64,000 nt of DNA from a virus, in the IMG/VR virus record IMGVR_UViG_3300035698_020096, positions 1 through 64,000 of that record, one strand, 5' to 3'. Below the pieces are notes generated by a model, which saw only the letters and a program-made list of their open reading frames with translations, had not been told where the DNA came from and searched no databases. Shown here piece by piece: positions 245 through 19,900 of this stretch; position 1 is the stretch's first letter; each line of letters begins with the position of its first letter. Both the position numbers and the translations under genes were made by a program.

Positions 245-559
245 CTAGCTCCATTCTTGTTCTTCATATTCCTCTTCTTTAATAAGTTCTTTCATAGACT
301 TAGCTTTATCATTAATTAAAGAATAAGCCTTGCCTCTACTTTTACTTTCAGCCACTAGATATACCACAGCGTCAACTTCTTTGAGATAGGTTTTATCTAC
401 AATAGTTTTATTTCCACTAGGACTAAGGAACTTTTCATAGACTTGATTTTCCTTATTAAGGTTTAGGCCTATTTCCCAGTAAGCGGCATCAGGTAAAGGC
501 AAAGTGAAGGATTTATCTTCTTTAGTATTTAACTTATCAGTATTGTTACAAATATTCAT
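245..559 (-). CDS. hypothetical protein with acidic C-terminus
   Basis: 104-aa ORF, co-oriented with its neighbours; no motif recognised. Confidence 0.65.
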   Translation of the reverse strand: MNICNNTDKLNTKEDKSFTLPLPDAAYWEIGLNLNKENQVYEKFLSPSGNKTIVDKTYLKEVDAVVYLVAESKSRGKAYSLINDKAKSMKELIKEEEYEEQEWS

Positions 560-603
560 ATGCTTTTACAAAGAGATTAATTAGATAGCAAAGGCATTCT
601 TTA

Positions 604-711
604 TTAAACGGAGGGTTCACTAATAACAAAGGCTACATAGATTAATAGAATCATAGTGATTAAACCTAAGAGCATAATAAGCGACATCCAATTCTTTTCA
701 TTTGAATTCAT
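604..711 (-). CDS. small single-pass membrane protein (35 aa), not in the ORF track
   Basis: Reads MNSNEKNWMSLIMLLGLITMILLIYVAFVISEPSV*. It has a hydrophobic stretch of about 21 residues and an upstream AAAGGAA. Confidence 0.55.
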   Translation of the reverse strand: MNSNEKNWMSLIMLLGLITMILLIYVAFVISEPSV

Positions 712-717
712 TTCATT

Positions 718-785
718 TATTCCTTTATTTAATATATTCCTTTATTTAATATATTCCTTTATTTAATATATTCCTTTATTTAATA
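718..785. repeat. 17-bp tandem repeat (TATTCCTTTATTTAATA x4)
   Basis: Four exact head-to-tail copies with no spacers. Confidence 0.95.
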
Positions 786-865
786 TATTAGACATCTTGA
801 GTAATTAAGAAAGAAGAACTTCTAATAAGGGTTAGAGAGCTTTCCACGTTAATTACTGAAGAGGT

Positions 866-1363
866 TTATTGCTTGTGTTGTTTATTTAACCAATTACTAA
901 TCTTCAAATAGTAACTATACCTAACTACTGTATAAAGAGACCTAATAGTAGATACCTCAGCAAAACCCCTTGTACTTACACTCATTACATATAGAACTCT
1001 AAATATATCTTCAGTAACATCAGGAATATATTTCTTAAGTTCCTGAAACATATCCTTATAAAGACTTGCCCTATCTTTAATTAGTTTAGATTTAATATCG
1101 GTGTATAGTTCTACATCAATAGAAGATAGAGGAATAGTATCTCCACATATCAAAGCATTTCTAATAATAGATTCAATATTAACCCTACTTATATTCTCTA
1201 ATTCCTTCTCGGGATTCTCTTTATTACAAAGATAGGAAGCCAACCATTCCTCACTTTTAGTCTTAGGGGGAAGTCTTAGCATTAACTGATGGCATTCTTC
1301 AATAGTAATATTAGTAATATTAGATTTAGATATTTTCATATTTTCTATATAGTAAATAAACAT
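866..1363 (-). CDS. hypothetical protein
   Basis: 165-aa ORF. The true start may be the downstream ATG (MKISK, 1339). Confidence 0.7.
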   Translation of the reverse strand: MFIYYIENMKISKSNITNITIEECHQLMLRLPPKTKSEEWLASYLCNKENPEKELENISRVNIESIIRNALICGDTIPLSSIDVELYTDIKSKLIKDRASLYKDMFQELKKYIPDVTEDIFRVLYVMSVSTRGFAEVSTIRSLYTVVRYSYYLKISNWLNKQHKQ

Positions 1364-1399
1364 CTTTCTTAATTAAATATAGTCAATTAAGAAAGATGT
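1360..1399 (-). terminator. 15-bp perfect inverted repeat; terminator or operator
   Basis: ACATCTTTCTTAATT-N10-AATTAAGAAAGATGT just downstream of the 1427 stop, followed by TTATTT on the minus strand. Confidence 0.55.
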
Positions 1400-1426
1400 G
1401 CAATAAATCAAAGGAGAAAGTATTTT

Positions 1427-2759
1427 CTAGATACCCTTTAGATTCAGCTCAGTAATATCGAGTTCAATAGGTACGGGTTTAATACCATTCTCAATATAGT
1501 AGCCATAAGCCTTAGCTTGTTGATTAGGGTCTAGTCCAATCTTAGTAGCTACGAGTTTTGCAACAGGTCCTTCTATTTCGATAAAGTATTCTAGTTCAGA
1601 TACTTTATCGAGAGACAGTTCACAGTTACCTATATGACAAGAAGCTCGAAACTTCTCAATAGAGATAGAGGGACGAGCATTCTTATCAGCAAACTCAAGA
1701 GCTTCAGTTAGACTAGATAGTTCAACTGTTTGTTCACGAAACATTTCCGTATCAGAACCCCGTCCTTTAATATCAAAGGTTAGAACGCCTCCTCGGTCCT
1801 TAATACGAAAGTATGTATTTTCTGTATTATTGAATACATACACACGGTCCATTTGATACTGATAACTCTGTTGAAGACCTAGGATAGAACCAATAGAAGA
1901 AAATGCTGGCTGAGAGATACACCAGCGGTACTCAACTTCTTCCACTGAACTAAGAAGGAATGTAAGTTCTTCAGTAGACTCTTTATCTACTACGGAACTC
2001 AAGTCAACAGATACCCCAGTAAGGTTCCGACGTAGATGTTTATTAGCATCAATGAAAAGACTATTACCTTCACAAGTACGAAGATACACAGTAGGCCCTT
2101 GGGAATGTGTCAGAGTTACTTTCTTATACTGACGTTTAGTTACAAAGTAACCTTCTTCATTAACTAGTAAGTGTTCTAGTTCAGCAATAGAAAGCTGGGG
2201 TTCAACTGTTAACTCATTAAACTTTAGTCCAGAACCCTGATACTTCTTAGAGAACTGGATTAATCCCAGGGCTTGTTCTTTACTCCGTAAAATAGAAGAG
2301 AAGATAAGTTTAGAGTAATCCGGTAGTTGTTCAAGCACATCTTGAATCTTAATGAAATCAAGTTTCATTAATTCTTCATATTCCTCCTTATTCCTCCTTA
2401 TTAGAGGATTCAATATGAAGTTTAACTTCGTCCACAAGAGGATATACTGCAACAAGTTTATCTCCTACAGAACCATTCGTATTAAGGGAGATACTACAGT
2501 TAAGATTCTCTCGAATAATCTTAATAATGTTCTGTAAGTAGGGGTGAAGCAGAGGTTCTCCTCCTGATAGAATAATCTCTCCTACATTAAGGAGAGAGAT
2601 TTGAGTTATGAACTTCTCAATCCATTCAAGGCTCATTACACTACCTGAGATATCCTGTCCTTCGTTATGACAACCTTTACATTTAGCATTACAGGTATCA
2701 ACGAGTAACAGACGGATTTGTTCTACATCTACTTGATTACGAACTACTTGAGTATTCAT
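1427..2759 (-). pseudogene. radical SAM (MoaA-like) - CYTH domain fusion, frameshifted by a 10-bp tandem duplication
   Basis: The 5' part (2388-2759) has CNAKCKGC (CxxxCxxC), LSGGEPLLHP, NTNG and an AGGAG RBS. The 3' part has CYTH motifs (EVEYR, QMDRVY, FRIK, LTFDIKG, EKFR, LDKV, FIEIEG). Removing one TTCCTCCTTA copy at 2381-2400 gives a single 440-aa frame (...HIESSNKEEYEELMKLDF...). Confidence 0.8.
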
Positions 2760-2879
2760 TGGATTCTCCTGATTTACTGATGAACTTAATTAGATGAAAA
2801 AAGCGACGCCACTAAAACATATTGGTTATATTAGATATTAGGTCCAGCCCTAATATCAAAACATATAATTAAATTCATT

Positions 2880-3590
2880 ATGTTCACTCCTAAAATAAAA
2901 GCATTTGTAATTGAAGATAGATTAAAAGGAAATATTCCTTCACCTTCTGAAGTTAATTATTTCTCTAGTACTGAGACTGAGGATAAATGTGCTCGATGTA
3001 TATTCTTTAGTTCTCATACATCCCAATGCTCCCTATTAGAAATGGAGGTGTTACCCGAAGCCACTTGTGATGTATTCCTAGAGACTAATAAACATGATGC
3101 TGTTACCTGGATAAAAGACAATCTAAGTCATACTATTAATCCAGATAATGGATTCCCTATTCTCACGGCTTTATATGGCAGCGATGACTTTGGGCGGGAA
3201 GATGTAGATGCCAGTAAAGAAGAAGAAGAAGAAGAAATGGGTATAACTCCATTTGAGTATGCCTTCTCTGACGATGTTAGTTATCATATTCCCATTTGTA
3301 GATTAAGTCAAGAAGAGAAAGAAAGGTTTAGTCTTACAGTGGAAACTTTAATAGGAGTGCATATTCCTTTACCTCAATTAGTAATAGACGAGAAGGAATC
3401 TAAACAATTAGAAACCGTATATGTAAAAGAAGATGTAGTATTTACACCTATTCCCAAAGATTGGAACATTAATATAAAAGAGTTTAAATATTCTTTACTT
3501 AAAGGAGATAAACTACACTTATCTCAATCACCAGACGGTAATTATCCTACTATAGCCTGGGAACTAAAGGAAGAAGTTAAATCCAGTTAA
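2880..3590 (+). CDS. hypothetical protein with N-terminal HiPIP-like 4-Cys motif
   Basis: VNY...CARCIFF...CSLL...TCDVF, followed by an acidic middle region. Confidence 0.7.
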   Translation: MFTPKIKAFVIEDRLKGNIPSPSEVNYFSSTETEDKCARCIFFSSHTSQCSLLEMEVLPEATCDVFLETNKHDAVTWIKDNLSHTINPDNGFPILTALYGSDDFGREDVDASKEEEEEEMGITPFEYAFSDDVSYHIPICRLSQEEKERFSLTVETLIGVHIPLPQLVIDEKESKQLETVYVKEDVVFTPIPKDWNINIKEFKYSLLKGDKLHLSQSPDGNYPTIAWELKEEVKSS

Positions 3591-3609
3591 TTAAAATCTA
3601 ACTAATTAC

Positions 3610-4116
3610 ATGATTACTCTTATTGGATTTCATACGAATTGGGAGCTTAAAGTCTATGGAGTATTTACAGATTCAACCTTTAATTATCCTCATTTAGAAT
3701 TAAATAATGGTGTATTAAATATGGAGTTAATAAAAGAAAGATTGAAAGTTAGAGATAAACTCAATCCTTTCTACTACACCTCTCCATATTTAATAGCGAA
3801 GGTAGAAACTGAGGAGTCTATTCAATTATTCAAAGTAAGTACAGAGTTAGAGATTAGAGTCACTTATATACTTTCTACAGAAGCCCCTAAGACCATTGAT
3901 GCTATAAGCCCTATCTCTAGTTTTATATCAATAGAAAAAGATAGATTAGATTTGAACCAGAGAATATTTACATCTATTAAGGAGTTATTAAGACCGCCTA
4001 CATTAATACTTCATAATGGTAATATTCTAGGATATAACAATGGGGAATATTTCCCATTAGATAAAGAAGATAAAGAAGATAAAGAGGAAATAACTTATGA
4101 TTTTATATCGAGCTAA
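3610..4116 (+). CDS. hypothetical protein
   Basis: 168-aa ORF in the + strand run; 9-bp DKE repeat near the end. Confidence 0.75.
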   Translation: MITLIGFHTNWELKVYGVFTDSTFNYPHLELNNGVLNMELIKERLKVRDKLNPFYYTSPYLIAKVETEESIQLFKVSTELEIRVTYILSTEAPKTIDAISPISSFISIEKDRLDLNQRIFTSIKELLRPPTLILHNGNILGYNNGEYFPLDKEDKEDKEEITYDFISS

Positions 4117-4270
4117 TTTACCAGCAGGGACTACATATAATGCAGGTATGAATTATCGACCTAATCCAGCAGGAGCCAATGTTGCTAACCCTATTCCAAT
4201 TAGGAAACCTTCGGGGGCTAATACATTAGGTAGAGCAACCGCTAGTATGCGAACTTACACTTTCGGTTAA
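4097..4270 (+). CDS. 57-aa Pro/Gly/Asn/Ala-rich basic peptide, not in the ORF track
   Basis: AGAGGA RBS at 4083-4088 and ATG at 4097. Reads MILYRANLPAGTTYNAGMNYRPNPAGANVANPIPIRKPSGANTLGRATASMRTYTFG*, immediately followed by a terminator. Confidence 0.7.
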   Translation: MILYRANLPAGTTYNAGMNYRPNPAGANVANPIPIRKPSGANTLGRATASMRTYTFG

Positions 4271-4275
4271 TATAA

Positions 4276-4308
4276 AGGAGGGGAAAATTCCCCTCCTTAT
4301 GTGTTTTT
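4276..4308 (+). terminator. intrinsic terminator
   Basis: AAGGAGGGGAA-A-TTCCCCTCCTT hairpin followed by ATGTGTTTTT. Confidence 0.8.
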
Positions 4309-4320
4309 AATACAATACTA

Positions 4321-4614
4321 ATGAAACTGATAAAGAATATATTTAAGCTATATAAACTATTGAATCTAATTGAGTTCAGTAAAGAAGGGGACTTATTAAT
4401 CAAGTCTAAAGGGTCCTTGTTATTAGAAGGAGATTACATAGTTTTAAGTACAGAAAGAAAGAGTAGAGAACAATTAAAAGACATAAAGAGTAGAGAGCAA
4501 TCAGAAGAGATAAATATATATGGCAATACCCAAGATGGTGTTATGCATAGGACATCGAGTCCTCCGATTAATACCCCCTCCACCTACTCCAGGAGTAGCA
4601 CTTACCGGATGTAA
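4321..4614 (+). CDS. hypothetical protein
   Basis: 97 aa with a 9-aa internal repeat (KSREQLKDI/KSREQSEEI). Its 3' end overlaps the PAAR gene. Confidence 0.55.
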   Translation: MKLIKNIFKLYKLLNLIEFSKEGDLLIKSKGSLLLEGDYIVLSTERKSREQLKDIKSREQSEEINIYGNTQDGVMHRTSSPPINTPSTYSRSSTYRM

Positions 4615-4789
4615 CAAAATAGTAATTAATGGTAAGTTTGTATGTCAACTAGGTAGTAAGACTTATGCTGGTTCAGTACTATCAGTAAATAATAAAGTAT
4701 GGGCAAATAATAAACCTATGGCTACTGCTCCTGGTAAATGTAGTGAAGGTATATCTTTATTTGGAGACCCAAAGGTAATATTAGGATGA
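4520..4789 (+). CDS. PAAR-like spike-tip protein
   Basis: 89 aa with three-fold repeats (KIVINGKFVCQLG / KVWANNKPMATAPG / GDPKVILG) and Cys/His residues. Confidence 0.7.
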   Translation: MAIPKMVLCIGHRVLRLIPPPPTPGVALTGCNKIVINGKFVCQLGSKTYAGSVLSVNNKVWANNKPMATAPGKCSEGISLFGDPKVILG

Positions 4790-4811
4790 AAGGTGTCTAA
4801 ATTAGATTTAT

Positions 4812-5843
4812 ATGAAAGAAGCATTTAATAAGTTAATTAATTACGTTAAGGGATTAGATGAGACTGCTCCTTTAGATGAGATAGTTCAAGGGGAGGTCCC
4901 ACCTATTCATAAAGGGTTTTCTACTTCTACAAAAGAGAAACATTATAAAGAGCTTGATGTTAAATGGGAATTAACTAGTAATACCATAGTAGGAGAAGAG
5001 ATATGGTCAAGAAGTTTCACTGAATTAATCTTTGAGACAGATGACAATGAGGATCCTGTATATGTAAAAGAAGTTACATTTGATGAGTATGACCCTGAAT
5101 TAAAGGGTACTGAGTTCTACAGAGTAAACCATCCTTTCTATGAAGATATATACAAAGGGACCAAGCCCTTCTTTAGATGGAATAGAGAACGGATGATATG
5201 GTATCAAGAAATATATTATTACAATAGGAAGGAAGATACAGTTAGGTGGGATAGACCCTTCAGTACATACAGTAACCCTGACTCATCTACTCATGACCTA
5301 TATGAAGAGTTGCCTTATGTATTCACAAAAACCCTTAGTTGCGGTAAAGCTCTAGGGGTAGTAATAAGGGCAGATGTTCCTTTTGATTTACAAGTAGGAG
5401 ATTCCTTATATATGAATATAACCGAATCCCCTAAGATAAGTCCATTAGGAGAGCCTCAAGTAACACTTACTTTTAAGAATGTAGGGAACCAATCTTTCAA
5501 CCAATATCAAACTTCCAGATATGAAGAAGAAATAAAGATAGTAGAAACATGGTATCAAGTATCACCTTCTGGAGATGATATATCTCCTAAATATATAGAG
5601 ATAGATATATATGGTACGGTTGAAGCTAAGGCAGGAAGGTCTTATCACCCTAAAGGAGAAGATGAGGAATACAGAGAAATACTTGTACATCCTCAGAATA
5701 CCCTTTATGAGGTTAGATTAAAACCTCCTGGTAAAGCTCACCAATTTAAGGATGACTTCTGGAACACTGAAGATATGAGCCGTACTAGTAAGAAGTATAA
5801 GAAATATAATCAAAGGAGATTTAAAGATCCAGCATGGCAGTAA
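4812..5843 (+). CDS. hypothetical protein
   Basis: 343-aa acidic, aromatic-rich ORF. Confidence 0.8.
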   Translation: MKEAFNKLINYVKGLDETAPLDEIVQGEVPPIHKGFSTSTKEKHYKELDVKWELTSNTIVGEEIWSRSFTELIFETDDNEDPVYVKEVTFDEYDPELKGTEFYRVNHPFYEDIYKGTKPFFRWNRERMIWYQEIYYYNRKEDTVRWDRPFSTYSNPDSSTHDLYEELPYVFTKTLSCGKALGVVIRADVPFDLQVGDSLYMNITESPKISPLGEPQVTLTFKNVGNQSFNQYQTSRYEEEIKIVETWYQVSPSGDDISPKYIEIDIYGTVEAKAGRSYHPKGEDEEYREILVHPQNTLYEVRLKPPGKAHQFKDDFWNTEDMSRTSKKYKKYNQRRFKDPAWQ

Positions 5844-6121
5844 AAGTAGTAGATGGTAGTAAAAGAATAAGTTTCCATCTTTCATATGAAGAATCTCTTA
5901 CTACTCAATTAGCTATTAATAGAGATAAAACTTCTCTACGTCAAATAATAACGGAAGGTTTAACATTATATGAATTACCTAATCATTCATCTATCCGATT
6001 ATTCAGAGAGAGATTATTATCTAGGTTAAATAGTGATATAGGAATCTCTCGGGCATTCATAGTGGAGTTAAGATTACTATATTTATTACTAGGTCATTAT
6101 TTACAAAAGGTAGAAGATTAA
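5834..6121 (+). CDS. hypothetical protein
   Basis: 95 aa; overlaps the upstream stop. Confidence 0.7.
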   Translation: MAVKVVDGSKRISFHLSYEESLTTQLAINRDKTSLRQIITEGLTLYELPNHSSIRLFRERLLSRLNSDIGISRAFIVELRLLYLLLGHYLQKVED

Positions 6122-6475: not shown

Positions 6476-7277
6476 TCTTATATATAAGAAGATAGTAGTA
6501 GAAAGAGATACAGTATTAAAACCTTCGACCAGAGAAGCAGTTGTAACTAGACCTGAGGATTTATACACTCTTAAAAAGGGTCAGTCTTTCGATTGTATCC
6601 GTATAGTGGAGCATCTTAATCATTATTGCTTGGACCTCCGTGAAGCGATTCAAGGTCATCAAAGATGGTATGCTTTCATGGGTCATTGCTATATAGAAGA
6701 ACCGAAACCCTCCGTTGCAACCCCCATAGCTAATAAAGAAGTACTAGTTAAAGGAGTACCTTTCTTTGCTCAATATGATAATAGATATAAACCTAACACT
6801 TCCTGCTTCCTAACAAGTGCAGCTATGATAATGGCCTATCATGGGATTAAGCCTTTACATAACGGAGTACAGTTAGAGGACGAGTTGTATCAATATGCTA
6901 TTAAAGGGGGACTTAATAGATTTGCCGGTGAACATGTAGCACAGGTAATTAAAGATTATGGACTTAATGCTACCTATAGTACTAAAAGGAGTTTCCAAGA
7001 TATTAAAGACCAGCTTAATAAAGGGAATCCTTGTACGTTAGGAGTATATAGTACATTTGCTGGACATATCATATGCATAATTGGTTACGATGATACAAAG
7101 AAACACTTTATATGTCATGACCCCTGGGGGCGTTGGTTGGGTACTAGAGGAGATTATGATTTCAATCATAGTGGAGAAATGGTTTACTATTCCTATTCTG
7201 ATTTAGGTAGAGAAGCTAGTCCAGAAAGTCCTAATAACCCTTCTGATTGCTGGTCTACATTTATAAGTAAGAAATAG
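6456..7277 (+). CDS. C39-like papain-fold peptidase with N-terminal SH3-like domain; probable endolysin
   Basis: VPFFAQ...SCFLTSAAM (Gln/Cys), GHIICIIGYD (His) and HDPWG (Asp). The QLEDELY segment is typical of cyanobacterial homologues. Likely start is ATG 6468. Confidence 0.8.
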   Translation: MSILMINLIYKKIVVERDTVLKPSTREAVVTRPEDLYTLKKGQSFDCIRIVEHLNHYCLDLREAIQGHQRWYAFMGHCYIEEPKPSVATPIANKEVLVKGVPFFAQYDNRYKPNTSCFLTSAAMIMAYHGIKPLHNGVQLEDELYQYAIKGGLNRFAGEHVAQVIKDYGLNATYSTKRSFQDIKDQLNKGNPCTLGVYSTFAGHIICIIGYDDTKKHFICHDPWGRWLGTRGDYDFNHSGEMVYYSYSDLGREASPESPNNPSDCWSTFISKK

Positions 7278-7353: not shown

Positions 7354-7800
7354 ATGAATAATTCGGATATACCTGAAACAATAATTCCATTAATAAGTAA
7401 TTTAAGTGAGGAAGAGCAAATAGTCCTTAGAAACTACTTTGATTCTTCTAGTGGAAATATAAAAGTAATTGAAACCTTAGATACTGAAACTAAAGTTTTA
7501 TGTACAAAACCATTTTGGAAGTCCATAGGTTTCTGGGGTATAACCTTAACTATGGTAGTAGGTTTAAATAACCCAGTTAATAATGTGTTAGATAAAGGAA
7601 CATTTACAATGCAAGATGCTTGGGAAATGTTCCAAGTAATAGCTGCTTGTGGGGTAGCCTATGTAGGTAGAGTAAAAGCTACTCAGCCTTTAGATCTAGG
7701 TGTTCATCCTTATGCTAGGTTTAATACTGTAGTATCTGCTAAACCTCCTCAATCTGTTGTGGTAGAACAAACTCATTATGATTTAAAGGATGGCTTTTAA
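7354..7800 (+). CDS. putative holin
   Basis: KPFWKSIGFWG motif followed by two hydrophobic segments; directly after the lysin. Confidence 0.55.
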   Translation: MNNSDIPETIIPLISNLSEEEQIVLRNYFDSSSGNIKVIETLDTETKVLCTKPFWKSIGFWGITLTMVVGLNNPVNNVLDKGTFTMQDAWEMFQVIAACGVAYVGRVKATQPLDLGVHPYARFNTVVSAKPPQSVVVEQTHYDLKDGF

Positions 7801-7811
7801 TGAAACATAAT

Positions 7812-7845
7812 ATAAGGGCTTCTTTAATTATAAAGAAGCCCTTAT
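7812..7845. terminator. bidirectional terminator between convergent genes
   Basis: ATAAGGGCTTCTTTA-ATTA-TAAAGAAGCCCTTAT perfect hairpin. Confidence 0.85.
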
Positions 7846-7869
7846 TGTTTTATATGAATATAAAGTTTT

Positions 7870-7918
7870 ATTGTTATTAATATTATTATTATTATTAATA
7901 TTATTAATATTATTAATT
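7870..7918. repeat. AT-rich low-complexity (ATT/AAT)n tract
   Basis: TTATTAATATTATTATTATTATTAATATTATTAATATTATTAAT. Confidence 0.8.
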
Positions 7919-7938
7919 TACATAGATATTAAATACAC

Positions 7939-10900
7939 TTAAGTAATCATCAATTCATAATTACCTTCAGATGTAACCTGTAGGTCGAGTTGGTCAATAG
8001 CCATCCACTCAGTATCTACAGCTAAGTGAAATAACTCTGCATCTAAAGGAGATATATCCTCTGCATATACAGCTTCTCCTTGTTCATTAAATACATCTGG
8101 AGATGACTCTCTTTCAGCACTTATAGATTGGTCTCTAGCCCTACTATTATTGAGTGCATCTAGAGCTTGGTCGATAACGGCAAAGTCATTTACTCTACCT
8201 GTATCATGCATCCCGGCTACTAAATGGCCAGTAAGACCTTCCATCATCATACCTAGAACCCCGGATAAGATAGCTCCTGATACAGTAAGAGCAGTACCTT
8301 TAGTGCCTACATAGCTATCACTATCAATAGCTCCTTTAGTACTACCAAGCATATACATTAGTTTATCTTCTTTAGATAGTTTACCTATCTTAGTCTTTTC
8401 AAATAGTTCTCTTTGTCCTTTCATCATATGACTCATATAGAAGAAGGAGTTAGTTACCCCTTTTTCAATAGCTGGAGCGAGAACCATTGCCCCCAAGGCA
8501 AACCCTAACTCACGACCCGCAGATATAGCCATTGCCTTACTAAGGTCTCCTTCTGATTCTTGTAAAGCTAAGTTTAACTTAAAGCTACTACCTATACCTT
8601 TAATACCTGCTGATATTGCACCTTTAGCTATCCCCCCTTTCTTAGTACCTTCCAGATTAGAAGGGAGACCAATTCTCTGAGACAGCATAGAGGAAAGAAT
8701 GCTTCCCTTAGACATAGAAGCTGCTATTAAGCTACTACCTACTACATCTCCTAATGCTTCTCTATCTAGTCTTCCACCTAAAACAGCACTACCTATTAGA
8801 GTAAGTGCAGCAGGTATAATAAAGTCCTGAATACCACTTAGTTTATTTGCATTAGATTCAGCTTTTAAGACATTCATATAATCAAAGCCAGGATTAGCAT
8901 TTATCTCTTGAGGCATTCGATTATTATTTACCTTTCTCCTTTCCTTCTGAGACATAAACATGAACTCATCCATAGCTGATTCATACTTACCCTGAAGCTG
9001 ACTAGTATAGGAGTTTACTCTTTCATTAGCTACTCTATTTATCTGTTCCTTATTAGCTTTATTATTTATATCAAGTCCTTGTAAAGCTAACTCATCCCTA
9101 GCTTTAACTCTTTCTTGTTCTATTAAAGTCTTTCTATTAACTATACCTTCAACAAATATAGAACCATTAAGATAAGACTCTACATCAGCTTGAGGGCCGT
9201 ATAGTTTATTCATCATTTCAACAAGAGCCTTACCTTTAGCCACAGTAGCTGTAGTTTCTAACTTATCAGTGATATATTTAGTTAGATTCTTCTTAACTCT
9301 ATCTGAACCTTCGCCTACCTCTACTTCTATATCTTTACCCTCAGATATGATTCTATGAATCATAAGTCTCATATTCTCTTCTTCTTTCTGGTCTACATTT
9401 CTACCTCCTTTAGTAGCAAAGGACATCTGTCTGTTATCTCCTTCCCCTGTAACTATTACTCCACTAAGTAAGGAAGGAAGAAGACCTTCTATATGGTCAG
9501 CACCACTTTGATACATACTGGATAGAACTTCACTGCTACCAAAGGCTTCCCATATAACAGGAATAGCATGAGAACTTAGTTTATTACTACCAGCTAAATT
9601 CATTAGACTAGTCCATATATCAGCTCCCATACCAGGATTAATCTCTCTTTCAGACCTTCCTCCTATTACCGATACAGCTTCTTGCCTAGCTCCTTCTAAA
9701 CTAGTAAAGCGTTGGAATCCTTCACCAGCTAATCCCATCATGCCTCTAGTAGCTTGAGTAGTATTCTCTATAATCTCTACCATAGATAGAGCCTCCATAG
9801 TCATGTCAGGTCTTCTTCCATCTCTTATATCTTTACTAGATATATCCAGATAGTTTCGTTTAATATCTTCTCTATCCTTACCAAACATCTGTTCCAATAT
9901 ATATAAATTCCTACTACCCTCAGCAGTTCTCTCGCTGAACTTACTATCTATATAGGTTTGTAGATTAGCTTTTTCATCTAGAGCTGGATTATATATACCT
10001 TGTTGCTCCATTAATCCAAGGGTTCCCTTCTTAACATTAGTCATGAAACCTAATTGAGAGCCTTTCTCATACTCCTCAGCCCCAGTATCAGTATTATATC
10101 TATAAGCAATAATGAGAGTTTCTAAACTCCTTTGAGTTTTAAGTGCAGCTACATCAAAGGCTGAAACTCTATCCTTACTATAGTTTTTTAATAGTTCTGT
10201 ACTTAATCTATCAAACTCATCTCCACCCATTCCAAATTTAGTTCTGAGGATAGATTCAGTATCACCGAATTGATCATTACCCCAAGGAGATATTAATTCT
10301 CCACTATTATCCATTCGTACTTCGTTATTAAGTCCGGGTTTTCTAAGACTTTCTCTTTGACCTATTAAGTCAGATAGTTCCATAAAGGCTGACATACCTA
10401 CATTAGAACCAGAAGGACCGAACATAGAAGCCTTTTCTCTAACTAATGCTTGTTGAGCTAATGGGTCACTACTGAGACTTTCATATTCGACAGCAAAGTT
10501 CTTCATATCATCCAACATACCGGAACCACCTTTAGGTTTAATGCCATCCCGTAGTAGCTGATTAACGCTCTTAATAAAGGATAGGATACCCTCACTTTGT
10601 TGACTAGATTTATCTAATTCAGAATAGAAAGTATCTTCAGTCATATGTACATCCACACCTCCTTTAATAACCCCTTCTTTAGGTTTATCAAAGAAGCCCC
10701 CTTGTCTAAGAACTTCTCTAGTTCCGTCATCCTTTAATACATGATTAAGAGCCAGTAAGGGACTATCGGAATAAAGGGTTCCAATGAAAGTATTATAAGT
10801 TTTACCTAGGACTATACCTCCTGCTTCTCCCATTACCTTAACCATAGAGTCATAAGCATTAAGGGTCATATTAGCCCCTGCACCTTGAGCTAGTACTCCT

Positions 10901-13900
10901 TGGAGTCCAGGTAATCCTCTATATCTAGCGTAGAAGGACGAACTAGCATGAGCCATTACTACTTCTCTATCCAGTTCTTCTTGACCCTTACCTTGCTCAT
11001 TCAAAGGTATTAAGTAACTATTAAGACTCTCCTTAACTGTATCTAGAACAGTTCGTCTAGCTTCCTGGTCTACCATTAGTAAGCTCATATAAGTAGACTC
11101 ATTCTTTCTATCCCTATCATTTCTAACAATAGATTCAAGACTAGCTACGAGGGTTTGGTCTAGTTTATTAACATTACTTTGATTACTAAGAAGTTCAAAT
11201 AGAGAAGTATTATGTCCAGCTATATCTAAGTTCTCATTAAATATATTATTGAGTACAGACTTAATACTATTAGTGCCATCTATAACCCCTTCCATGCCAC
11301 CGAATAAATCTCTACCGAAATATATCTCGGTGAATATAAGGTCTAAGCTAGGACTAGTCTTTTGAAAGCCTCCTTCTTCTTTACTCATTAAGAACTCTTT
11401 ACGAATCCCTAAGAAGTTAGCTACTTCTTTCTTAGTAGCACGAGTAAAGTCACTACTATTAAGATTCTCTTTCCATATATCTAATCTAGAATTATTATCT
11501 ACTATCTTACTTCTTTCTTGTTCTATATCAGACCTTAACTTAATTATCTTATCTGTAGCTTTAGCTACTAAATCAGGCTCAGAAGTATTACCAATAGTTT
11601 TCTCTAATCTATCTAAATCTCTTTCCTTTTTACGGATTAAGATATTAGACTTTTCTATATCTCTTTGAGCTGACATGAACTGACTAAATATAGTAGTATA
11701 TTGGTCACCATCAAAGTCACCTAAGTTCATAGTTAAGAAACTAATAGGCGCTACTAAAGATAACCCTTTATTCCTTACAGAGTTCTCAAATGAAGCTTTA
11801 TTACCTTGAAGGTTTTGAGAGTATTGATTGAGCAATCCTATATCTTGAATTAACCCTACAGTCATCCTTTGTTGTTCGGTACCACCTACGGGAGGAGACC
11901 TAAAACTTAATGCTTCTAAACTATCTGTTATATCTAAAGTATTCATTGATACTTCAAGAAGACTAATAGCTCTATTAAATCCCTTTTTACCCTCAAGACT
12001 AAATGCTCCAGCTTTCTCCACTTCTTCCTTACTAGTACCTAATAAAGAATAAGCATTAGCTGAAGTCTTCTTACCTATTAATTTATCAATAGCCTCTACA
12101 TCTGAACTACTTATAGATTTAGATGTAACTCCCGATTGAAGAGTATCTATAACTTTTATTAAACTCTTTATATCTTGTCTATTAGAATCTGTTATACCTT
12201 TATGTTCTTCAGATATTTTAAAGGTATTAGTATCTCTGCTTTCTAGTTCGGTTACTACCTTAGTAAACCCCCCACTCATTTCTCCTAGAACAAAAGAGAA
12301 CATATCTCTTCTATCTCCATCAGAAGATAAGCCCTTTAAATAATCATTATCAAAACTAAAGGCTTTTACTCTACCTTTGTAGGACCCTTCCATTAAACCT
12401 TTATTAGCTATGGTCTTATCTAAGGTTTTATCTAAGGTTTCATTAATAGTAGAAGTTTGATAAGCTTTTATAGCTTGGTTAGCCTCTTCTTCTGTAGCAT
12501 AAGTAAATGAGCTGAATTTAGATTTATATTTAATTTCACTTGAAGGGCCCTCTAGTTTCAAATCGTATTCTTTAATACTATTTTTAAGAACTCCTACTCG
12601 TTGATTTAATAATTTCTTATATTCAAGTAAATCTTTCCCTTCTATATTTTTACTAATAGCTTCTTTAACAAATGAATCAAGATTAGCATCACTAATCACA
12701 CCTTTAAATTCTTGTCTTAATATCTCATAATTAGCTTCTTCAGCTTTATTAAAATCAGATAAAAGAATGGTTCCTACTTTACTAGGTATTAGTTCTTGCT
12801 TAGTTATTTCTTTAATATAAGCTAGTAACTTATCATCACTGACCACACCCCTGAAGTAATTCTTTAGTTTATTAAGATTGTATTCATTCAGGTCCGTATA
12901 TTCTTTAAGGAGAAGAGTTGCTATATCTGTTGGTAATTTATCTACCGAACCCAATTTCTTCTGTTTATCAGCTAACTCTTTAATGTTATCCGTAATAATT
13001 CTTAAGCTTTCCACATACCCTTGCCTTTCCTCCTGATTCAGGCCTACCCCACCCTTAGAGGATTTAAGTCTAGTAGCAATATCCTTCCTTTCATTTTGAC
13101 GAATATCCATCTGTTCTCTAAAAGTTAACCGTTGATTAAAAGCAGTAAACCTTTCTTCTATAGCAGTAACAGTAGTCCCTGATAAACTAGGTAATTCTCC
13201 TCTAACAATTCTGGAGAACTCTTCGATATCAATAGGACCCCTTGTAACCATATAGTCTTCGGTAATAGATAAAAGACTTCTTATATTCTCTCTTTCCTTA
13301 GATAAGCTAGAGAAGCCATCTTTTATCTTACTAAAAGCACCTGTACCTAATGCTGTATCTATAGCCCTTCTTTCTTCAGGGGTTAATGAGACCTTACTGC
13401 CACTAAGAAATAATCTCCCCTCTAAACCTTTCCTTTGCTGCTGAAGAAAGTTTAGTTCATTATTTAAATTCAGTCTACTATACACCTCCTCATTTAATCT
13501 AGCTTTAGCTTTAGGGCTTAAACTAGGTAATTCCTCATCAATAATAGTTGCTAGGACAGAAGCTCCCTTTCCATCTTCTATAGCTATTTTTACTAGTTCA
13601 GTAATATCATTTATCTTACTTTTTTCTAAAGATAAACTATTTACACGAGCTAGAATATCTTCATATAAACCGCTTTTAATTATGGATGTAACTGCTTTTC
13701 TAGTGTTAGATATAGCCTCTATACTTTCAAAGGCTGTAGTTCTTGTCTTATTTAAATAATCTATATAACCTTTTGAAAGAAGTATAATTTCTTTAGCTTC
13801 TACATTTTTAGCAATATCGCCTAAAGCTATATCAATCTTTACTATTTCTAATAAAGCTAATTGTTTACCAAAGTTATCCCCCGAGGTATCAGCTACACCA

Positions 13901-16900
13901 ATATTATCAATAGCACTTTGTAATCTATTACTTATATCCTTAGCTTTATCTTTATCCCCTTGTATATTTAAGTCAAGAGATTGAAACTCTCGTTTATATT
14001 TACCAACTAGGTTTAGTAAGTCCCCTCCTACTTGAGATAAGCCTGACTCGGTGGCTCTAATGGCTGATTGATATACCGCCTTTTCTTTGTTATATAAAGG
14101 AGAACTCTCATCTAGATTAGTCATTCCCACTCTTAGCTCAGAACTAATCTCTTCTCTTATAGGAGATATGCCGGTGTACCGTCTAATAGCTTCTTGAGCT
14201 AATACCATGTGCCCCGCAGGTACCATCCAACTAGCAGCAGGACTAGATACAGCCCCAGGGTATTTAGTTTTATGAGCCATCATTCCCTGTATTCTAGTAC
14301 CAGTAGAAGCTTCAGCCATAGTCCTAATGACCCCTGTTTCCCCAATAGCTACTCCATAGAATTGTCTAAGGGCTAGGACTTCTTCTTTATTCAAATCTAT
14401 ATCACTATCTCCACTAAGTTGAGCTCTAGTCATCTTCTCTCTTACTTGACTCATTAGAGTACCTGGAGTAAAAGCAGAAGCTAGAGCTAAGTTCTTAGCT
14501 ACTAATTCATCAACAAAGGAACCATAGGAATCCCCAATAGCTTTAAGTTCTTCTCCACCCATTAAGTAGCTATATCTTCTATCGTTAAAATCTAATTGAA
14601 TTTTCATACTCCCTTCAGCACTTTCATTAGATAACTGGTAAATCATAGGGAGAGAGAAGCTGAATCCTTTATATTTCAAGTTATCTAATACTGGAGCTAC
14701 TGAACCCATACCAAAAGGTTTATTAGGATCCATTTGATATTCTCTACCTATAGCCATCAATCTTTCATCTGATACCTTATCTATAAGTCCAGGTATATCT
14801 TGTATCTCAGTAGATAAACCCAACCCCCCTTCGGCTTGAGGCTTATAAGCTATCCCAAATATCTTTCTAATCCTATCTCCTTTAGAATCGGTAACACTCA
14901 CTTCCCCAGTAAAGGGGTCCCTATACAATTCTCCATAATTAGGACTAGCTATTAATAAATCATGAACAGTTCTTAGACTATCCATTCGTTGGTCTTTGTC
15001 AACGGCTACAGCTAATACATTTAAATGGGCTTCTATTACTTGCCTAGATAGTTCTCCATAGATACTATAGTCCTTCTCTATTTGAGTAAGCTGTTCCTTA
15101 TTAATAGCGGAATAGCCTGCATATAACCCTACAAACTTACTCTTATCTAATTGAGAGGCTAGACGTATATCGGTAAAATCATATATCTTTCTATCAGTAA
15201 ACCCTCGCTTAGCTAAGTCCATCTCTAAGCCCGTCATAGTACTACCTTCGGATACTACTGACATCATATTAGCTACTACCTTTCTAAGAGAAGCAATAGA
15301 GCCTGTTTCTTCAAAGCTAGTGACAATAGTAGCCATTGGTTTCATTAGGTGTTGAAACTCAAGAGAACCTGAATGTTTACTACCGAGGGATTCTTTAGAT
15401 TGAGAAGCCATTGGACCTATAAACATTCGGAGTACTGTTGACTTATGAGTATAACCTCTAACAATAGCTCTAGTTATTTCGAGATAATCAAGAGCTTCTT
15501 GCTCTTCTTGATTAAGATTATCCAAGGCTAACTTCTTCTCTCTTAAATCTCTAGCCATTTGAATCTTATCTAAATCAGCATCTCCCATAATAAAAGCTAG
15601 TTGCTGAATGATACGGTCGTTACTATAATCAATCTCAGTGGGTACTTCTATTCCTGCTGTTTGTGCTTTCAATTGTTCAACTAAATCAATAGATGCAGCT
15701 ATTAAAGTAGCCTCTCTTTCCCTTGAATCATCTATTCTAATAAAGTCTCTCTTAGTAACTCCTACTGAACCTTTATCTCCAATAGACTCTAGCAATCTAG
15801 TTCTAATAAATCCCTTCATATAATCCATATCTTCTTGATAACCTTTAAGAGCCCCAAGAACTTTAGTATCATCCAGTAGTTGAAGACTAGGGGTTTGTTG
15901 AGCATTAAATAAATCAGTAGACTCCTTAAAGACTGCTTCTCCAAATACTCTACCCAATTCAGTTCTTAACTCAAGAGTATCTATATATATATCAGAAGTA
16001 CTATCTAGTATTTGACTTAACTTACTTAAGTCTTGCTTAACTCCCAATCGTTCTAAATGTCCCCTTATCTCTTCATTCTTAGATACACCTGTAAGTACTG
16101 CACCTAACGCTTGATTCCTAAACCATTCTCCTAACTCTCCTTTCATTGCTGATTCAAATAGCTGAGTCTTTATCTGACTCCCTATTCCTTTATCACTAAT
16201 CCATGAATCTTCAAATCCCATCATTAGAGAAGCTATTAGTCCCTTACCTGTAATACCTCCCTGTTGCGTTTCTAAACTACCTATAAGGGGTTCAAGGTAC
16301 TTCTTATTACGAATAATAGTAGAACCATGAGAATAGAAATAGCTCTTGAGGTTAGAAGGACTGAATAAACCAAAGACTTGACCTACATCTATATCCCCAG
16401 TAGCCCCTGCTTTATTCCTATTTAATTGTTCAGTTACATAAGAGAAGAAGTCTGTCTTACTTCCTGGTACTTGATATAGCTCCTCTAGACCAGTAAATTT
16501 AAGTACAGCTTTAGGTAGTCCTCCAGTACCTTCAACTCTCTTACCTCCACCTACCATAATGGAACGTAAATATACCATTTCCCATAACAACTGGTTATTA
16601 TCAGCATTACCCATCAGTTGTTTAGAATCAAGTACATACTCGACACTATTCTCTGAGGCTCTATACCAGGCCTGTCTATCTAGTTTAGATACGTTAGGTA
16701 AATCATTAATAGTTCTAAAGTTATCGATAACTTCTGTGAGTGCCCCTACTTGGTCTCTAGAGTCAACTACTGATTTAGTAACATAATTACCTTCAGTATC
16801 TGAATAGGTATAGTATCTATCAAAACTATCTCCAAGAGTAGCCCTTACTAGCTCTAACTTAGCTTCTCCTGTAAGCTTATCCATACTTACTATTTCTTTA

Positions 16901-19900
16901 GGAATACCTCCCCCTTGCTTCATCATTTCCTCAGCAGAACCCCAAACTAATACTCTATTAGTATCAGAGTCAAAGGTAACTATATCTCCTCTATTTGCTA
17001 ACATTACCCCTTTATGGCTCCATTCCTCTGATAGTTTAGAAGACTTCTGTCTCTTCTCACTCTTATCTATAAAGCCACTCATAGTACCCATACGTCCTAT
17101 TACCTCAGCTTGAGACACCTTATCTAATCTCTTCCAGTCATAGCCTACAGACCTTAATTTAGATTTAACGAATTCTCTATCATCTGTACTAGAACCATAT
17201 AAAGGATTAGCCCAAGCGTAGTCACTATAGTCCCCAGTGAGTTGAACTAAAACTATAGGGTCAAATCCTTCCTTATTACCAGTAAAACCTTTAATACCCC
17301 CAGCCATAGAGTCAGCTAATTTAGCTCTAGTTAAAAGTAGCTTTCTAGCTATAGAAGTAGACCCTGGTAGAAACTCATTATCTAAGAATCCAAATTCATC
17401 CTTAAGTTCTTTCTTAGCTTCCTCAATTAGATTAGCTATTTCGCTATTAACAACTGTTCTAAAGCCTGCATCACTAACTACCGCTGTATTTAAATCAGTA
17501 CCTACAGTCGTCTCCACCCTACTCCACATAGTTCTAAGACTACCCATTAATTCTTCACTGTTTACAGATAGTCTTTCTAAGGAAGCCCTTTCAACTACTT
17601 TCTCAATAACTCTAGAAGGATTGTACATCCCTAGATTACTAGTACCCACTACATCCCTAAGTATTTCTACAGCTCGTTTAATTCCCCATGATTCCTTCTT
17701 AGCTAATTGAGACATTAGGTCTACTTTAATACCTGTAACTCTTTCATTAATTAGACCTGATACATCTCCTTTAGTAGTAAGACGATAAGATAGTTCTCTA
17801 TCTAACTCAAACATAGGTCTACCTCCCAGAACATTCTTTAAACGTTGAGGTATCTGTGAAGCTTTCTTTGCTACATTAAACGTATAGTTTATTGACTCAT
17901 TTACAGTCTCATCTTTAAATGGAGTAGCATCTATTAAATCTTTAAAGTCTTTATTTAATCCATTAGGTAAAGCTTCCCCAGATTGGATTCTATCTACTAG
18001 TTCATCCGTATTAGCTATACCCAACGTTCTTAAAGATGACGAATATTTATCATACAGCAGTTCACTTATATAAGTAACATATTGGTCTCTAGTGTTTATA
18101 TAACCCACCCCTGCAAATGAGGCCAGTTGCACTGAGCTTACATCTCCAGTAGGAGTTTTATTAATACCATACACACTAAGTCCAGTAGTTTCTTGACTAG
18201 CTGATATACCACTACCGTCTGCTACTCCTCTAATAGCCCCTTCAGTTCCCTTACCTGTAGTATTAGCAGGACCAAAGATATAAGATTGAGCTAGAGCATA
18301 TCTATAAAAAGCTTCACCTTTATTCAATTTATCTATAAATATTTGTTGATTATTATTAATACCGTATAAGGGATTTTTAAACCATGCTTGAGATGTTCCA
18401 TAGGTAGAAGCTCCAGATTGAGTAATAAAGGGTTCTAACATCCCGGCCTTTACTTCTTTAATATCTGACTTTAATTTAGTGGCATATAGAAAGTCTTTTC
18501 TACTCTCTAATATCCCTAATGCAATATCGGATTGGAAGGTACTTACACTTTCCAATCCCATGTATCTATCGAAGGTTTCTCTAATAGCGCCTACAGCATC
18601 TTTCTTAAGTGACTCAAGAGCCGATCTTCTTTCGCGACTAACTTTAGGGTCAGTTATCTCTCTATTAACATCTCTAATTAACTCAAGATGACTTAGTACT
18701 GAACGTCTAAGAGCTAAGTCAGTATCTCCATATATTTGCTCCTTAGTAAGCCCTCTATTAGCTAATCCTTCCCCTTTAGCTAACTTATCATATATACCCC
18801 CTCCAGTAAGTTCAAGAGCTCTTTTAGAAGTACCACTTACCCTCTCTCCTAAATGTTTAGTAGTAAAAGTGGATATAAGTTTAGATATTTCATAATCACT
18901 TAATGAATTATCTAATAGGAAAGTACCAGCACTTGAATCAGTACCTCCTGAAGCTATATGACCTCTAGATAGATATTCTAGGTAGCCTAATCCAGCAGTA
19001 GCTAATCTAGTAGTTTGAGCATCGTACTGGCTTTCCTTTAGAGCTTTCATATAAGCCATCGGCTCAGCTACTAAAGTTCTATAAGTAGTCTCTGCTGCTA
19101 ATGTACTAACTACATTTATTAACGAATCTACTGGACTTAATCTCAAAGCTTCTTTAGATTTAACTACTCGGGGGTTTAATTCATACTCCCCAGTTTCATC
19201 ATTACGAACAAAGGAACCTTCTCCATAAGGTATTCCCCCTATATCTGTGTCAGTATTATTAACAAAGAGAGAGTTACCTATTACTTTATTCTGGTCAATC
19301 AAATATACAAAGCCCTGATTAGTTCCCATCCCTCCTTTTAAACTAGTTAGTCTAAACTTAATAGGATTAAATCCAACATTAGTATCTTGGAATCCTCTAT
19401 ATCCAACCATATCCGCTGGATTAATAGTGAGTTCCAACGCTAGTAAACTTCCTCCTTGTCCATATATATTCTTAACTCCCAGTCCCCCTGTATCTAAACC
19501 CATATCCTTATTTAATTGTTTAACTCTAGCTGTTATTTCAGCTATACCCAGAGCATTAACTTTATTCTCCCAACTAGCTCTAGTTCCTTCAAGAGAAGTG
19601 TCAACATTACCTACAGTAGTTTGAGTCAATCTTCTCCATTCTCTTTCTCTATCCGTACCTTGCTGAGCATAGAAGTTCTCCAAATCTGCACCTAAATTCT
19701 CCTCTTCATTTCTATATAAGATTCCTTTAGATTTAGCATGCTCTCTCATCTCTCTAGCTAAGGCAATAACTCCTACTTCAGAACTAACAGCTTCCTTATC
19801 ATCTCGACTAAATGCCATTGATTCAGAACCAAAGTTAGAGCTTCCAGTAATACTAGCTATATGTCTATATGTATCTTCTCCAAGACCCATACCAGTTCTT

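Follow-up and report, generated by a model that had tools for sequence, protein, structure and literature searches.

An interrupted radical SAM–CYTH fusion gene in a putative cyanophage and related gene pairs in bacteria and archaea

We examined a 64,000-nucleotide stretch of viral DNA (hereafter the window; positions 1 to 64,000 of the IMG/VR record IMGVR_UViG_3300035698_020096) for a gene lying on its minus strand, at 2759–1427, that joins a radical S-adenosylmethionine (SAM) domain to a CYTH (triphosphate tunnel) domain. It is reasonably likely, in our view, that this single gene of a cyanophage originally encoded an enzyme of about 440 amino acids (aa) modifying a nucleoside triphosphate (NTP) in two steps, and that it has been switched off in the copy described here. 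The fusion would be the one-protein form of a gene pair, a MoaA-like radical SAM gene and a CyaB-like CYTH gene, which is scattered in bacteria and archaea next to nucleotide kinases and other genes of nucleotide handling or conflict.

The source of the window is an 80,173-base (b) linear record, 47% complete by CheckV. The portal protein of the virus has 40.9% identity to that of the Microcoleus phage My-WqHQDG and 37.4% identity to those of the Microcystis phages Ma-LMM01 and MaMV (162–182 kb); the virus is a presumed Ma-LMM01/Microcoleus-phage-like cyanophage.

The frame break and the state of the gene

The gene is covered by two overlapping open reading frames (ORFs), A and B, which lie in different frames (Table 1). 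The shift coincides with a perfect tandem repeat of 10 base pairs (bp) at 2379–2402 (period 10, 2.4 copies, 100% match in Tandem Repeats Finder). ORF A ends in ...SSNKEE at its TAA codon; the remainder of the protein is read in the other frame, one base off, beginning with the Tyr codon at 2380. Upon removal of one repeat copy the window reads ...SSNKEEYEELMKLDF..., which is the junction reading of P0153, an intact 445-aa homologue (named 'organic radical activating enzyme/adenylate cyclase class IV' in JGI/IMG) with 85% identity to ORF A and 90.5% identity to the 317 in-frame residues of ORF B. The window ORFs also align end to end with the fusion proteins P0002 (445 aa), P0003 (443 aa) and P0004 (454 aa). 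Because the P0153 junction and these alignments match, the 440-aa reconstruction (123 + 317 residues) can be taken as correct and the frame repair as having a defined physical cause. The initial annotation of this DNA had described a MoaA-like CxxxCxxC–HNEG/GGEP domain running into a CYTH domain once the frame was repaired, with an intact length of 440 aa; Pfam matches (below), motifs and junction all agree with that description.

Table 1. Features of the radical SAM–CYTH gene and its flanks (window coordinates)
Feature	Position	Strand	Description
AGGAG, Shine-Dalgarno-like	2766..2770	−	6 nucleotides before the ATG at 2759; read from the sequence
ORF A	2759..2388	−	123 aa; encodes the beginning of the radical SAM domain (codons 1–123 of the fusion gene); ends at a premature TAA
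CNAKCKGC–HNEGQ	2655..2693	−	radical SAM [4Fe-4S] cysteines C23-x3-C27-x2-C30 and HNEGQ signature; invariant in 8/8 fusions
SGGEP	2553..2567	−	GGE-type SAM-binding motif; conserved in the fusion alignment except in P0153 (G for E)
ORF B	2455..1427	−	carries the CYTH domain; Pfam match
10-bp unit, two perfect copies	2400–2391 and 2390–2381	−	second copy supplies the TAA stop (2390–2388); frame shifted by +1
Remaining radical SAM barrel and linker	1964..2380	−	in the shifted frame; from alignment with intact fusions
Mini-ORF ATG AAG AAT TAA	2379–2368	−	stop overlaps the in-frame ATG at 2368–2366 (MKLDF...)
CYTH (triphosphate tunnel) domain	1430..1963	−	ExExR at 1939–1925, then Q.D, R.K, K, E, K.R, D, E.E
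Glu codon at an invariant Gly	1591–1589	−	in the LG.F.E.E strand of CYTH; fourth change among 78 invariant columns
17-pair hairpin and T-rich tail	1360..1399	−	28 nucleotides past the stop codon; likely intrinsic terminator

The broken reading is not confined to the window. It is also recorded on the contigs of P0155 (2,427 b), P0001 (2,433 b) and P0008 (up to 5,796 b), and a contig of 35,407 b encodes both P0156, which begins past the break, and the 123-aa P0157. The same break thus occurs on multiple contigs and in several sources, which disfavours a one-off assembly error.

Apart from the duplication, the window keeps 74 of the 78 columns that are invariant in eight intact fusions. At three of the four changed positions Val or Leu replaces Ile; the remaining change puts a Glu where Gly is found in all 15 aligned CYTH domains (9 fusion-type and 6 cellular). 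The homologues have the complete radical SAM barrel in one polypeptide; the window does not, its stop falling after codon 123. The simplest reading of these data would be a recent inactivation accompanied by the first sign of decay, and we believe, with good confidence, that the gene copy in the window is inactive. The two-step enzyme proposed initially is not supported for the window copy, which is interrupted and probably no longer active.

The duplication could alternatively represent one position of a reversible, slipped-strand phase switch, or else the two halves of the protein (ORF A and a 313-aa product of re-initiation) could cooperate. A perfect tandem repeat can be lost by slippage, the broken allele stands on multiple contigs from different sources, and the gene is otherwise almost undecayed. 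The ATG at 2368, which is preceded by AAGGAGG together with the overlapping stop-start TAATG, is a possible restart site for the 313-aa C-terminal product, and gene callers have taken it as a start (P0156, 313 aa). In addition P0006, a truncated 127-aa protein of another lineage (ENA, two contigs, the longer of 1,517 b), diverges from its intact relative P0004 and stops about five residues or less from the window's break, possibly at a contig end, through a frameshift or at a shared weak spot.

Other observations run counter to both variants. The AAGGAGG...ATG stretch predates the duplication, being part of the unduplicated coding sequence, and hence was not made for restart. The 313-aa product would be without the cluster-binding part, and the cut lies inside the radical SAM barrel, ahead of most of its strands. 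Nor is the split conserved, P0153 and all the other lineages being uninterrupted, while the several contigs may be one population assembled several times and the change of the invariant Gly to Glu points to relaxed constraint. Altogether, we regard a switch or a cooperation of halves as unlikely; for the 10-bp repeat as a reversible slippage switch, taken by itself, the likelihood appears slightly lower still, and a functional split enzyme is unlikely too. Conserved programmed frameshifting was also considered, and was rejected on the grounds that the intact relatives have no shift.

Intact homologues and identity of the two domains

Both domains occur in one chain in every intact homologue examined (8/8 aligned), so that the fusion noted in the window is shared by its relatives, which are proteins of 409–458 aa from metagenomes. 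When 1.84 billion representatives were searched with a profile, the only full-length fusions recovered were P0003, P0005 (438 aa) and P0007 (409 aa). The remaining matches were fragments, the pieces of the window itself and some 10,900 radical SAM proteins, which matched over the N-terminal part. Cluster look-ups added P0002, P0004 with eight cluster-mates, P0153 and P0167, all of them from metagenome assemblies. Contigs with intact fusions measure 12.8 kb for P0163, 15.3 kb for P0005 and 13.8 kb for P0167.

Searches elsewhere attested to the rarity of this pairing. In 50,697 GenBank phages there was no nucleotide match, and a protein search gave four short N-terminal radical SAM matches and no fusion; the gene was likewise not found by protein search in the GenBank entries of My-WqHQDG, Ma-LMM01 and MaMV. 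Two scans of IMG/VR yielded no other fusion, one being empty and the other returning two N-terminal radical SAM matches without CYTH. In a metagenome scan (20 loci) both halves were covered only in one locus, L003, and there as two genes, while a motif-based scan of one genome for each of 185,579 species gave 64 loci with the radical SAM part only and no fusion. Within the 80-kb record, no second radical SAM or CYTH gene was found. Our literature searches found no description of a radical SAM–CYTH fusion or of a two-gene cassette. The fusion of radical SAM with CYTH is, in short, a rare pairing.

Two minor observations concern individual homologues. P0002 and P0003, which are 53% identical, are each recorded from an ENA contig of exactly 8,951 b and could be paralogues carried by the same contig. 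P0153 has SGGGP in the place of the SGGEP found in the window and all other fusions, meaning that the glutamate of the GGE motif is lost; the lineage of the window and P0153 as a whole may be under relaxed constraint.

The C-terminal domain is supported as a predicted CYTH domain by several profile methods, being borderline with Pfam alone. ORF B matched Pfam CYTH (PF01928) with an E-value of 1.1e-4 and 22.6 bits (cut-off 23.2), and when all six frames of the entire record were searched the score was 23.3 bits, just above the cut-off. CYTH was detected by Pfam at E ≤ 0.01 in four of the eight aligned fusions. A profile of the eight fusions matched solved CYTH proteins, namely 1yem (8.7e-5), 7ns8 (1.8e-4) and 2dc4 (3e-4); its match to the class IV cyclase of Yersinia was weak.

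For comparison with cellular proteins we used 84 cellular loci, which had been fetched through a radical SAM sequence motif and are not an unbiased sample. Alignment by hhalign of the fusions with the CYTH protein of locus L003 (Pfam CYTH 8.6e-17) gave a probability of 81% and an E-value of 1.2e-5 over 119 columns. We also built a hidden Markov model (HMM) from the fusion-type C-terminal domains and a 184-aa stand-alone relative, P0094; this model picked exactly six of the 2,254 ORFs of the 84 loci (E-values 7e-12 to 1.5e-6). Among these six, the proteins of L003 and L078 exceed the Pfam CYTH cut-off, and those of L003 and L070 pass the NCBIfam cyaB model (TIGR00318; 66.4 and 64.8 bits vs 57.95).

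The fusions and the six cellular CYTH proteins could be aligned in register over E.E, Q.D, R, E, K.R and LD.V..LG.F.E.E, and E.E(Y)R, Q.D, R.K, K, E, K.R, D and E.E are invariant within the fusions. The charged tunnel residues of established CYTH enzymes (CyaB, Saci_0718, Pfu 1yem) are common to the fusion domain, whose catalytic residue set is complete, as is the motif set of the radical SAM half. Differences from these enzymes are that the lysine of ExExK is an arginine (EYR) in the fusions, that the fusions score at the Pfam cut-off, and that they are joined to a radical SAM domain.

The N-terminal half belongs to the radical SAM superfamily. ORF A matched Pfam Radical_SAM (PF04055) with 4.1e-12 and 47 bits (cut-off 29.5) and Fer4_12 with 2.8e-9; all eight aligned fusions also matched Radical_SAM. 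MoaA, NrdG, viperin and QueE, which are among the top family matches, handle nucleotides or their derivatives, MoaA acting on GTP and viperin on CTP. The top NCBIfam matches of ORF A were MoaA models, each scoring well below its cut-off (68.2 bits vs 325); NrdG and a tungsten-cofactor maturase came next, and viperin ranked seventh. For P0002 the order was MoaA models, tungsten-cofactor maturase, NrdG and ScmF, with viperin eighth, and none of the MoaA equivalog models was matched over its cut-off (73.5/325, 70.5/231 and 56.1/284 bits). The fusion profile, when compared with PDB entries, matched first 8wm2 ('Fe-S radical SAM', 1e-10) and then uncharacterised 'radical SAM core' entries and viperins; cytosylglucuronate decarboxylase was also among the matches.

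With MoaA (GTP 3',8-cyclase; PDB 1tv7/2fb3), the top curated family, the fusions share the GGE motif and the CxxxCxxC cluster motif, which in both is immediately preceded by an Arg. The term 'MoaA-like' used at the outset stands for the first ~190 residues, to which the likeness is confined; the auxiliary-cluster region of MoaA is missing. Across the eight fusions there is just one invariant Cys past the cluster motif (codon 2074–2072 in the window), and the barrel and linker part is without a three-cysteine auxiliary-cluster motif, whereas true MoaA has C-x2-C-x13-C and the cellular CYTH- or kinase-linked relatives have C-x2-C-x5..7-C...C or variants. Neither Mob_synth_C (PF06463) nor MoaC (PF01967) was detected in the 80-kb record, estimated by CheckV to cover ~47% of the genome, in line with the earlier remark that no other molybdenum-cofactor genes are seen. 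Fusion to CYTH and placement in a separate clade (see below) are further differences from MoaA.

Because the auxiliary-cluster cysteines and the MoaA C-terminal domain are absent, the phage-type enzyme is predicted to be a single-cluster radical SAM protein, in that respect nearer viperin. Viperin and its prokaryotic relatives (pVip) are also single-cluster radical SAM enzymes acting on NTPs, the fusion profile matched 6b4c (8.7e-7) and 7n7i (9.3e-7), and pVip genes often stand beside nucleotide kinases, as do cellular relatives of the fusion. However, scores for the prokaryotic viperin model NF038283 (viperin_w_prok, cut-off 180) were low (P0002, 34.9 bits; P0007, 52.8 bits; ORF A, 38.3 bits), and viperins are not known in fusion or pairing with CYTH, on which our literature searches found no paper. 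In PADLOC-DB 2.0, the radical SAM parts gave only weak pVip matches (40–42 bits), and neither the L003 CYTH protein nor the 359-aa protein encoded upstream of it had a match.

Cellular gene pairs and their neighbours

Six of the 84 cellular loci carry a CYTH gene downstream of a related radical SAM gene, either directly or with one gene between. They are L003 (from a metagenome), L070 (Pseudobdellovibrionaceae), L057 (Pacearchaeota), L062 (Methanosarcinales), L052 (Amycolatopsis) and L078 (Actinomadura). Such adjacency would be expected by chance in of the order of 0.1 loci, a rough, uncomputed estimate for a gene present 1–3 times per genome. Four of the six pairs are 33–52% identical to one another across bacteria and archaea, suggesting that the pair is a mobile unit. 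The radical SAM proteins of these pairs aligned over nearly their full length to MoaA models, below the cut-offs (e.g., 143 vs 231 bits). Enzyme types and gene order are those of the phage fusion, and the CYTH domains of the two groups are mutually recognisable by HMM; the pairs differ in being separate genes, in the cysteines retained by their radical SAM proteins, and in the kinase, Gre-like, TIR or deaminase neighbours of some of them.

In L062 the gene between the radical SAM and CYTH genes encodes an AAA_18 kinase, and proteins with a GreA/GreB C-terminal domain are encoded near the pair in both L062 and L070. L052, an Amycolatopsis metagenome-assembled genome (MAG), has after its pair a gene (7537–8946) for a 469-aa protein with a C-terminal TIR domain, and next after it one for an AIR-synthase-type protein, a type also found in L078; the actinobacterial version of the cassette with the TIR protein may have a conflict-system flavour. 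At 6845–7921 of L078 (Actinomadura rugatobispora), directly after a MoaA-like radical SAM gene, CYTH is fused to a cytidine/deoxycytidylate deaminase, which hints that this cassette handles a cytosine nucleotide. The neighbours in L003 are a YhcG-type nuclease (PADLOC candidate PDC-S02) and the unannotated 359-aa protein, which has a hydrophobic tail. By eye, from the sequences, L003 also lies near a likely HEPN/nucleotidyltransferase pair.

A sister cassette without CYTH and with conserved downstream neighbours was seen in eight loci (L043, L059, L063, L075, L076, L079, L081 and, partially, L051). In L043 these neighbours encode an AAA_18 kinase, a thymidylate/deoxynucleoside kinase (Tmk/dNK) and a GreA/GreB-C-terminal-domain protein. 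In L075 (Photobacterium iliopiscarium), a gene upstream resembles by eye a B12-type radical SAM gene; 401 genomes of the order to which the L075 genome belongs were searched and gave ordinary MoaA matches only.

In about 30 further loci, from Bacteroidota and some Bacillota MAGs, the related radical SAM gene lies between two others and is accompanied by glycosyltransferase genes, with no CYTH gene. The operon, of which L023 is an example, is strongly conserved: it comprises three radical SAM genes (SPASM, DUF512-type and HNEGQ-type) and genes for a 210-aa unknown protein, a fusion of a family 4 glycosyltransferase (GT4) with a polysaccharide deacetylase, and a GT28-type protein. An operon of this type is also present on the viral contig L088.

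To place the fusions among these proteins, a quick maximum-likelihood tree of 90 rows was made; four of the 81 radical SAM ORFs (L013, L051, L061 and L064) were shorter than 250 aa and were dropped. The eight fusions formed one clade (Shimodaira–Hasegawa-like approximate likelihood ratio test, SH-aLRT, 96), and all of these proteins stood apart from five true MoaA sequences (98). The deep branches of the tree are weak, and it does not point to the cellular form that gave rise to the fusion.

Proposed function and alternatives

For the intact protein, a two-step, NTP-based chemistry is plausible by analogy with MoaA and viperin. As in the reactions of MoaA on GTP and of viperin on CTP, the radical SAM half would cleave SAM, and the 5'-deoxyadenosyl radical so generated would abstract a ribose hydrogen from a nucleoside triphosphate bound to the enzyme. 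The CYTH tunnel would then grip the triphosphate, whether that of the product or that of the substrate, either for hydrolysis or for pyrophosphate release with cyclisation, leaving a modified nucleotide; cyclisation would parallel the logic of MoaA and MoaC. Given the loss of the auxiliary cluster, base recognition would have to differ from that of MoaA, and CYTH may supply nucleotide binding. In the window, a 10-bp tandem duplication of the replication-slippage type cuts translation short after 123 codons, partway through the radical SAM barrel, and glutamate also stands in the place of the universally conserved CYTH glycine.

The idea of a two-step NTP enzyme is strengthened, if indirectly, because cellular loci adjoin both enzyme types and do so with kinase, CYTH–deaminase fusion and TIR partners. 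As to a role in DNA modification or anti-defence, which the initial annotation had suggested, nothing was found that links the gene to either.

Several observations weigh against this interpretation. In the tree, the fusions are weakly sister (SH-aLRT 80) to the glycosyltransferase-linked clade, which is without CYTH, and only then to the actinobacterial CYTH-linked proteins (85), while the second CYTH-linked clade of cellular proteins branches elsewhere. This leaves one common origin of the pairing unsupported and makes a nucleotide-sugar or other substrate conceivable. As for the CYTH half, individually scored fusions fall below the Pfam cut-off (P0153, 21.2; P0002, 20.4; P0003, 18.9 bits), and ORF B, having no NCBIfam match at E ≤ 1, is not a cyaB equivalog; P0094 likewise matched no model. 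Neither a kinase nor a Gre-like partner of the kind seen in some cellular loci was found in the 80-kb record. Finally, the gene is otherwise undecayed; it may have been lost very recently, or may still be used in some form.

A different possibility is that the product of the family is a nucleoside antibiotic or toxin with an altered sugar, the triphosphatase-type half serving mainly for self-protection through destruction of the activated triphosphate. The closest worked example of such logic would be, by analogy, thmABC of Photorhabdus. There, ThmA (a radical SAM protein), ThmB (a nucleoside kinase) and ThmC (a 'nucleoside triphosphatase') suffice for the production of 4'-thiothymidine, and ThmC alone gives resistance (PMC12691670). 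There is thus a minimal nucleoside-modifying unit with self-resistance, and the cellular relatives of the fusion combine radical SAM, kinases and CYTH in a like manner. On the other hand, thmABC is neither a fusion nor of phage origin, and PMC12691670 does not describe ThmC as CYTH. For albomycin, the same paper names the Fe-S cluster of AbmM as the source of the sulfur (PMC12691670); the fusions are without a second cluster, which argues against sulfur insertion by the AbmM route. We consider an antibiotic or toxin function improbable for the family, about as much so as the switch or the cooperating halves discussed above.

The radical SAM half might also act on a nucleotide-sugar, a glycan, a peptide or a nucleic acid, with CYTH as merely a binding or regulatory module. 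This would be in keeping with the tree, whose nearest clade (weakly supported, 80) belongs to clusters with two more radical SAM genes, GT4/GT28 proteins and a polysaccharide deacetylase, and with the presence of cytosylglucuronate decarboxylase among the PDB matches. A mere binding module, though, is difficult to reconcile with CYTH catalytic positions that are all invariant across the fusions. The partners in the CYTH-linked loci, moreover, are nucleotide enzymes, and the top families (MoaA, NrdG, viperin and QueE) share the preference for nucleotides or their derivatives noted above. A non-NTP substrate seems to us a little less probable than the antibiotic function.

It is very unlikely that we are dealing with an ordinary molybdenum-cofactor MoaA gene, despite MoaA models being the best NCBIfam matches (56–74 bits vs cut-offs of 231–325, no Mob_synth_C or MoaC in the 80-kb record, no auxiliary-cluster cysteines, true MoaA in a separate clade with support 98), or with an intact gene misread, despite indels being a common assembly error (homopolymer errors do not typically produce a perfect 10-bp duplication, and several contigs from several sources carry this broken reading); both candidates were rejected.

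Returning to the two-step NTP enzyme, one could imagine the intact fusion turning an NTP into a modified nucleotide (chain-terminating or cyclic) for phage takeover, directed against host transcription or against a nucleotide-based defence signal, in a phage that would rely on its own candidate virion-borne polymerase, with the 10-bp repeat as a reversible switch of a costly function. We regard this elaborate scenario as rather far-fetched; if true, the repeat would toggle the costly function within the phage population.

More generally, NTP-acting radical SAM enzymes underlie the chain terminators of viperin, the MoaA reaction and thionucleoside antibiotics, and the fusion family would point to an undescribed modified nucleotide whose synthesis couples two steps. 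Covalent fusion would place both activities in one pathway, which helps to read the cellular two-gene cassettes, while carriage by a cyanophage suggests a use in infection. The intact homologues of 409–458 aa, as single chains, would be convenient targets for reconstitution. The window copy, for its part, is of value as a pointer to the family and as an apparently clean example of gene loss through a 10-bp slippage duplication.

Some features of the surrounding DNA complete the description. Since the hairpin with its T-rich tail comes after the stop codon, the fusion gene looks like one transcription unit, divergent from plus-strand genes that start at 2880. A terminator scan of 800–3200 returned three terminator-like sites vs 0.8 expected. 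PHROGs gave no match for ORF B and no function for the neighbours at 245–6121. A palindrome with an 8-bp stem at 2576–2597, inside the radical SAM coding part, is terminator-like on both strands, probably by coincidence. Farther away, the minus strand of the window has an ORF of 4,789 aa at 7939–22308.

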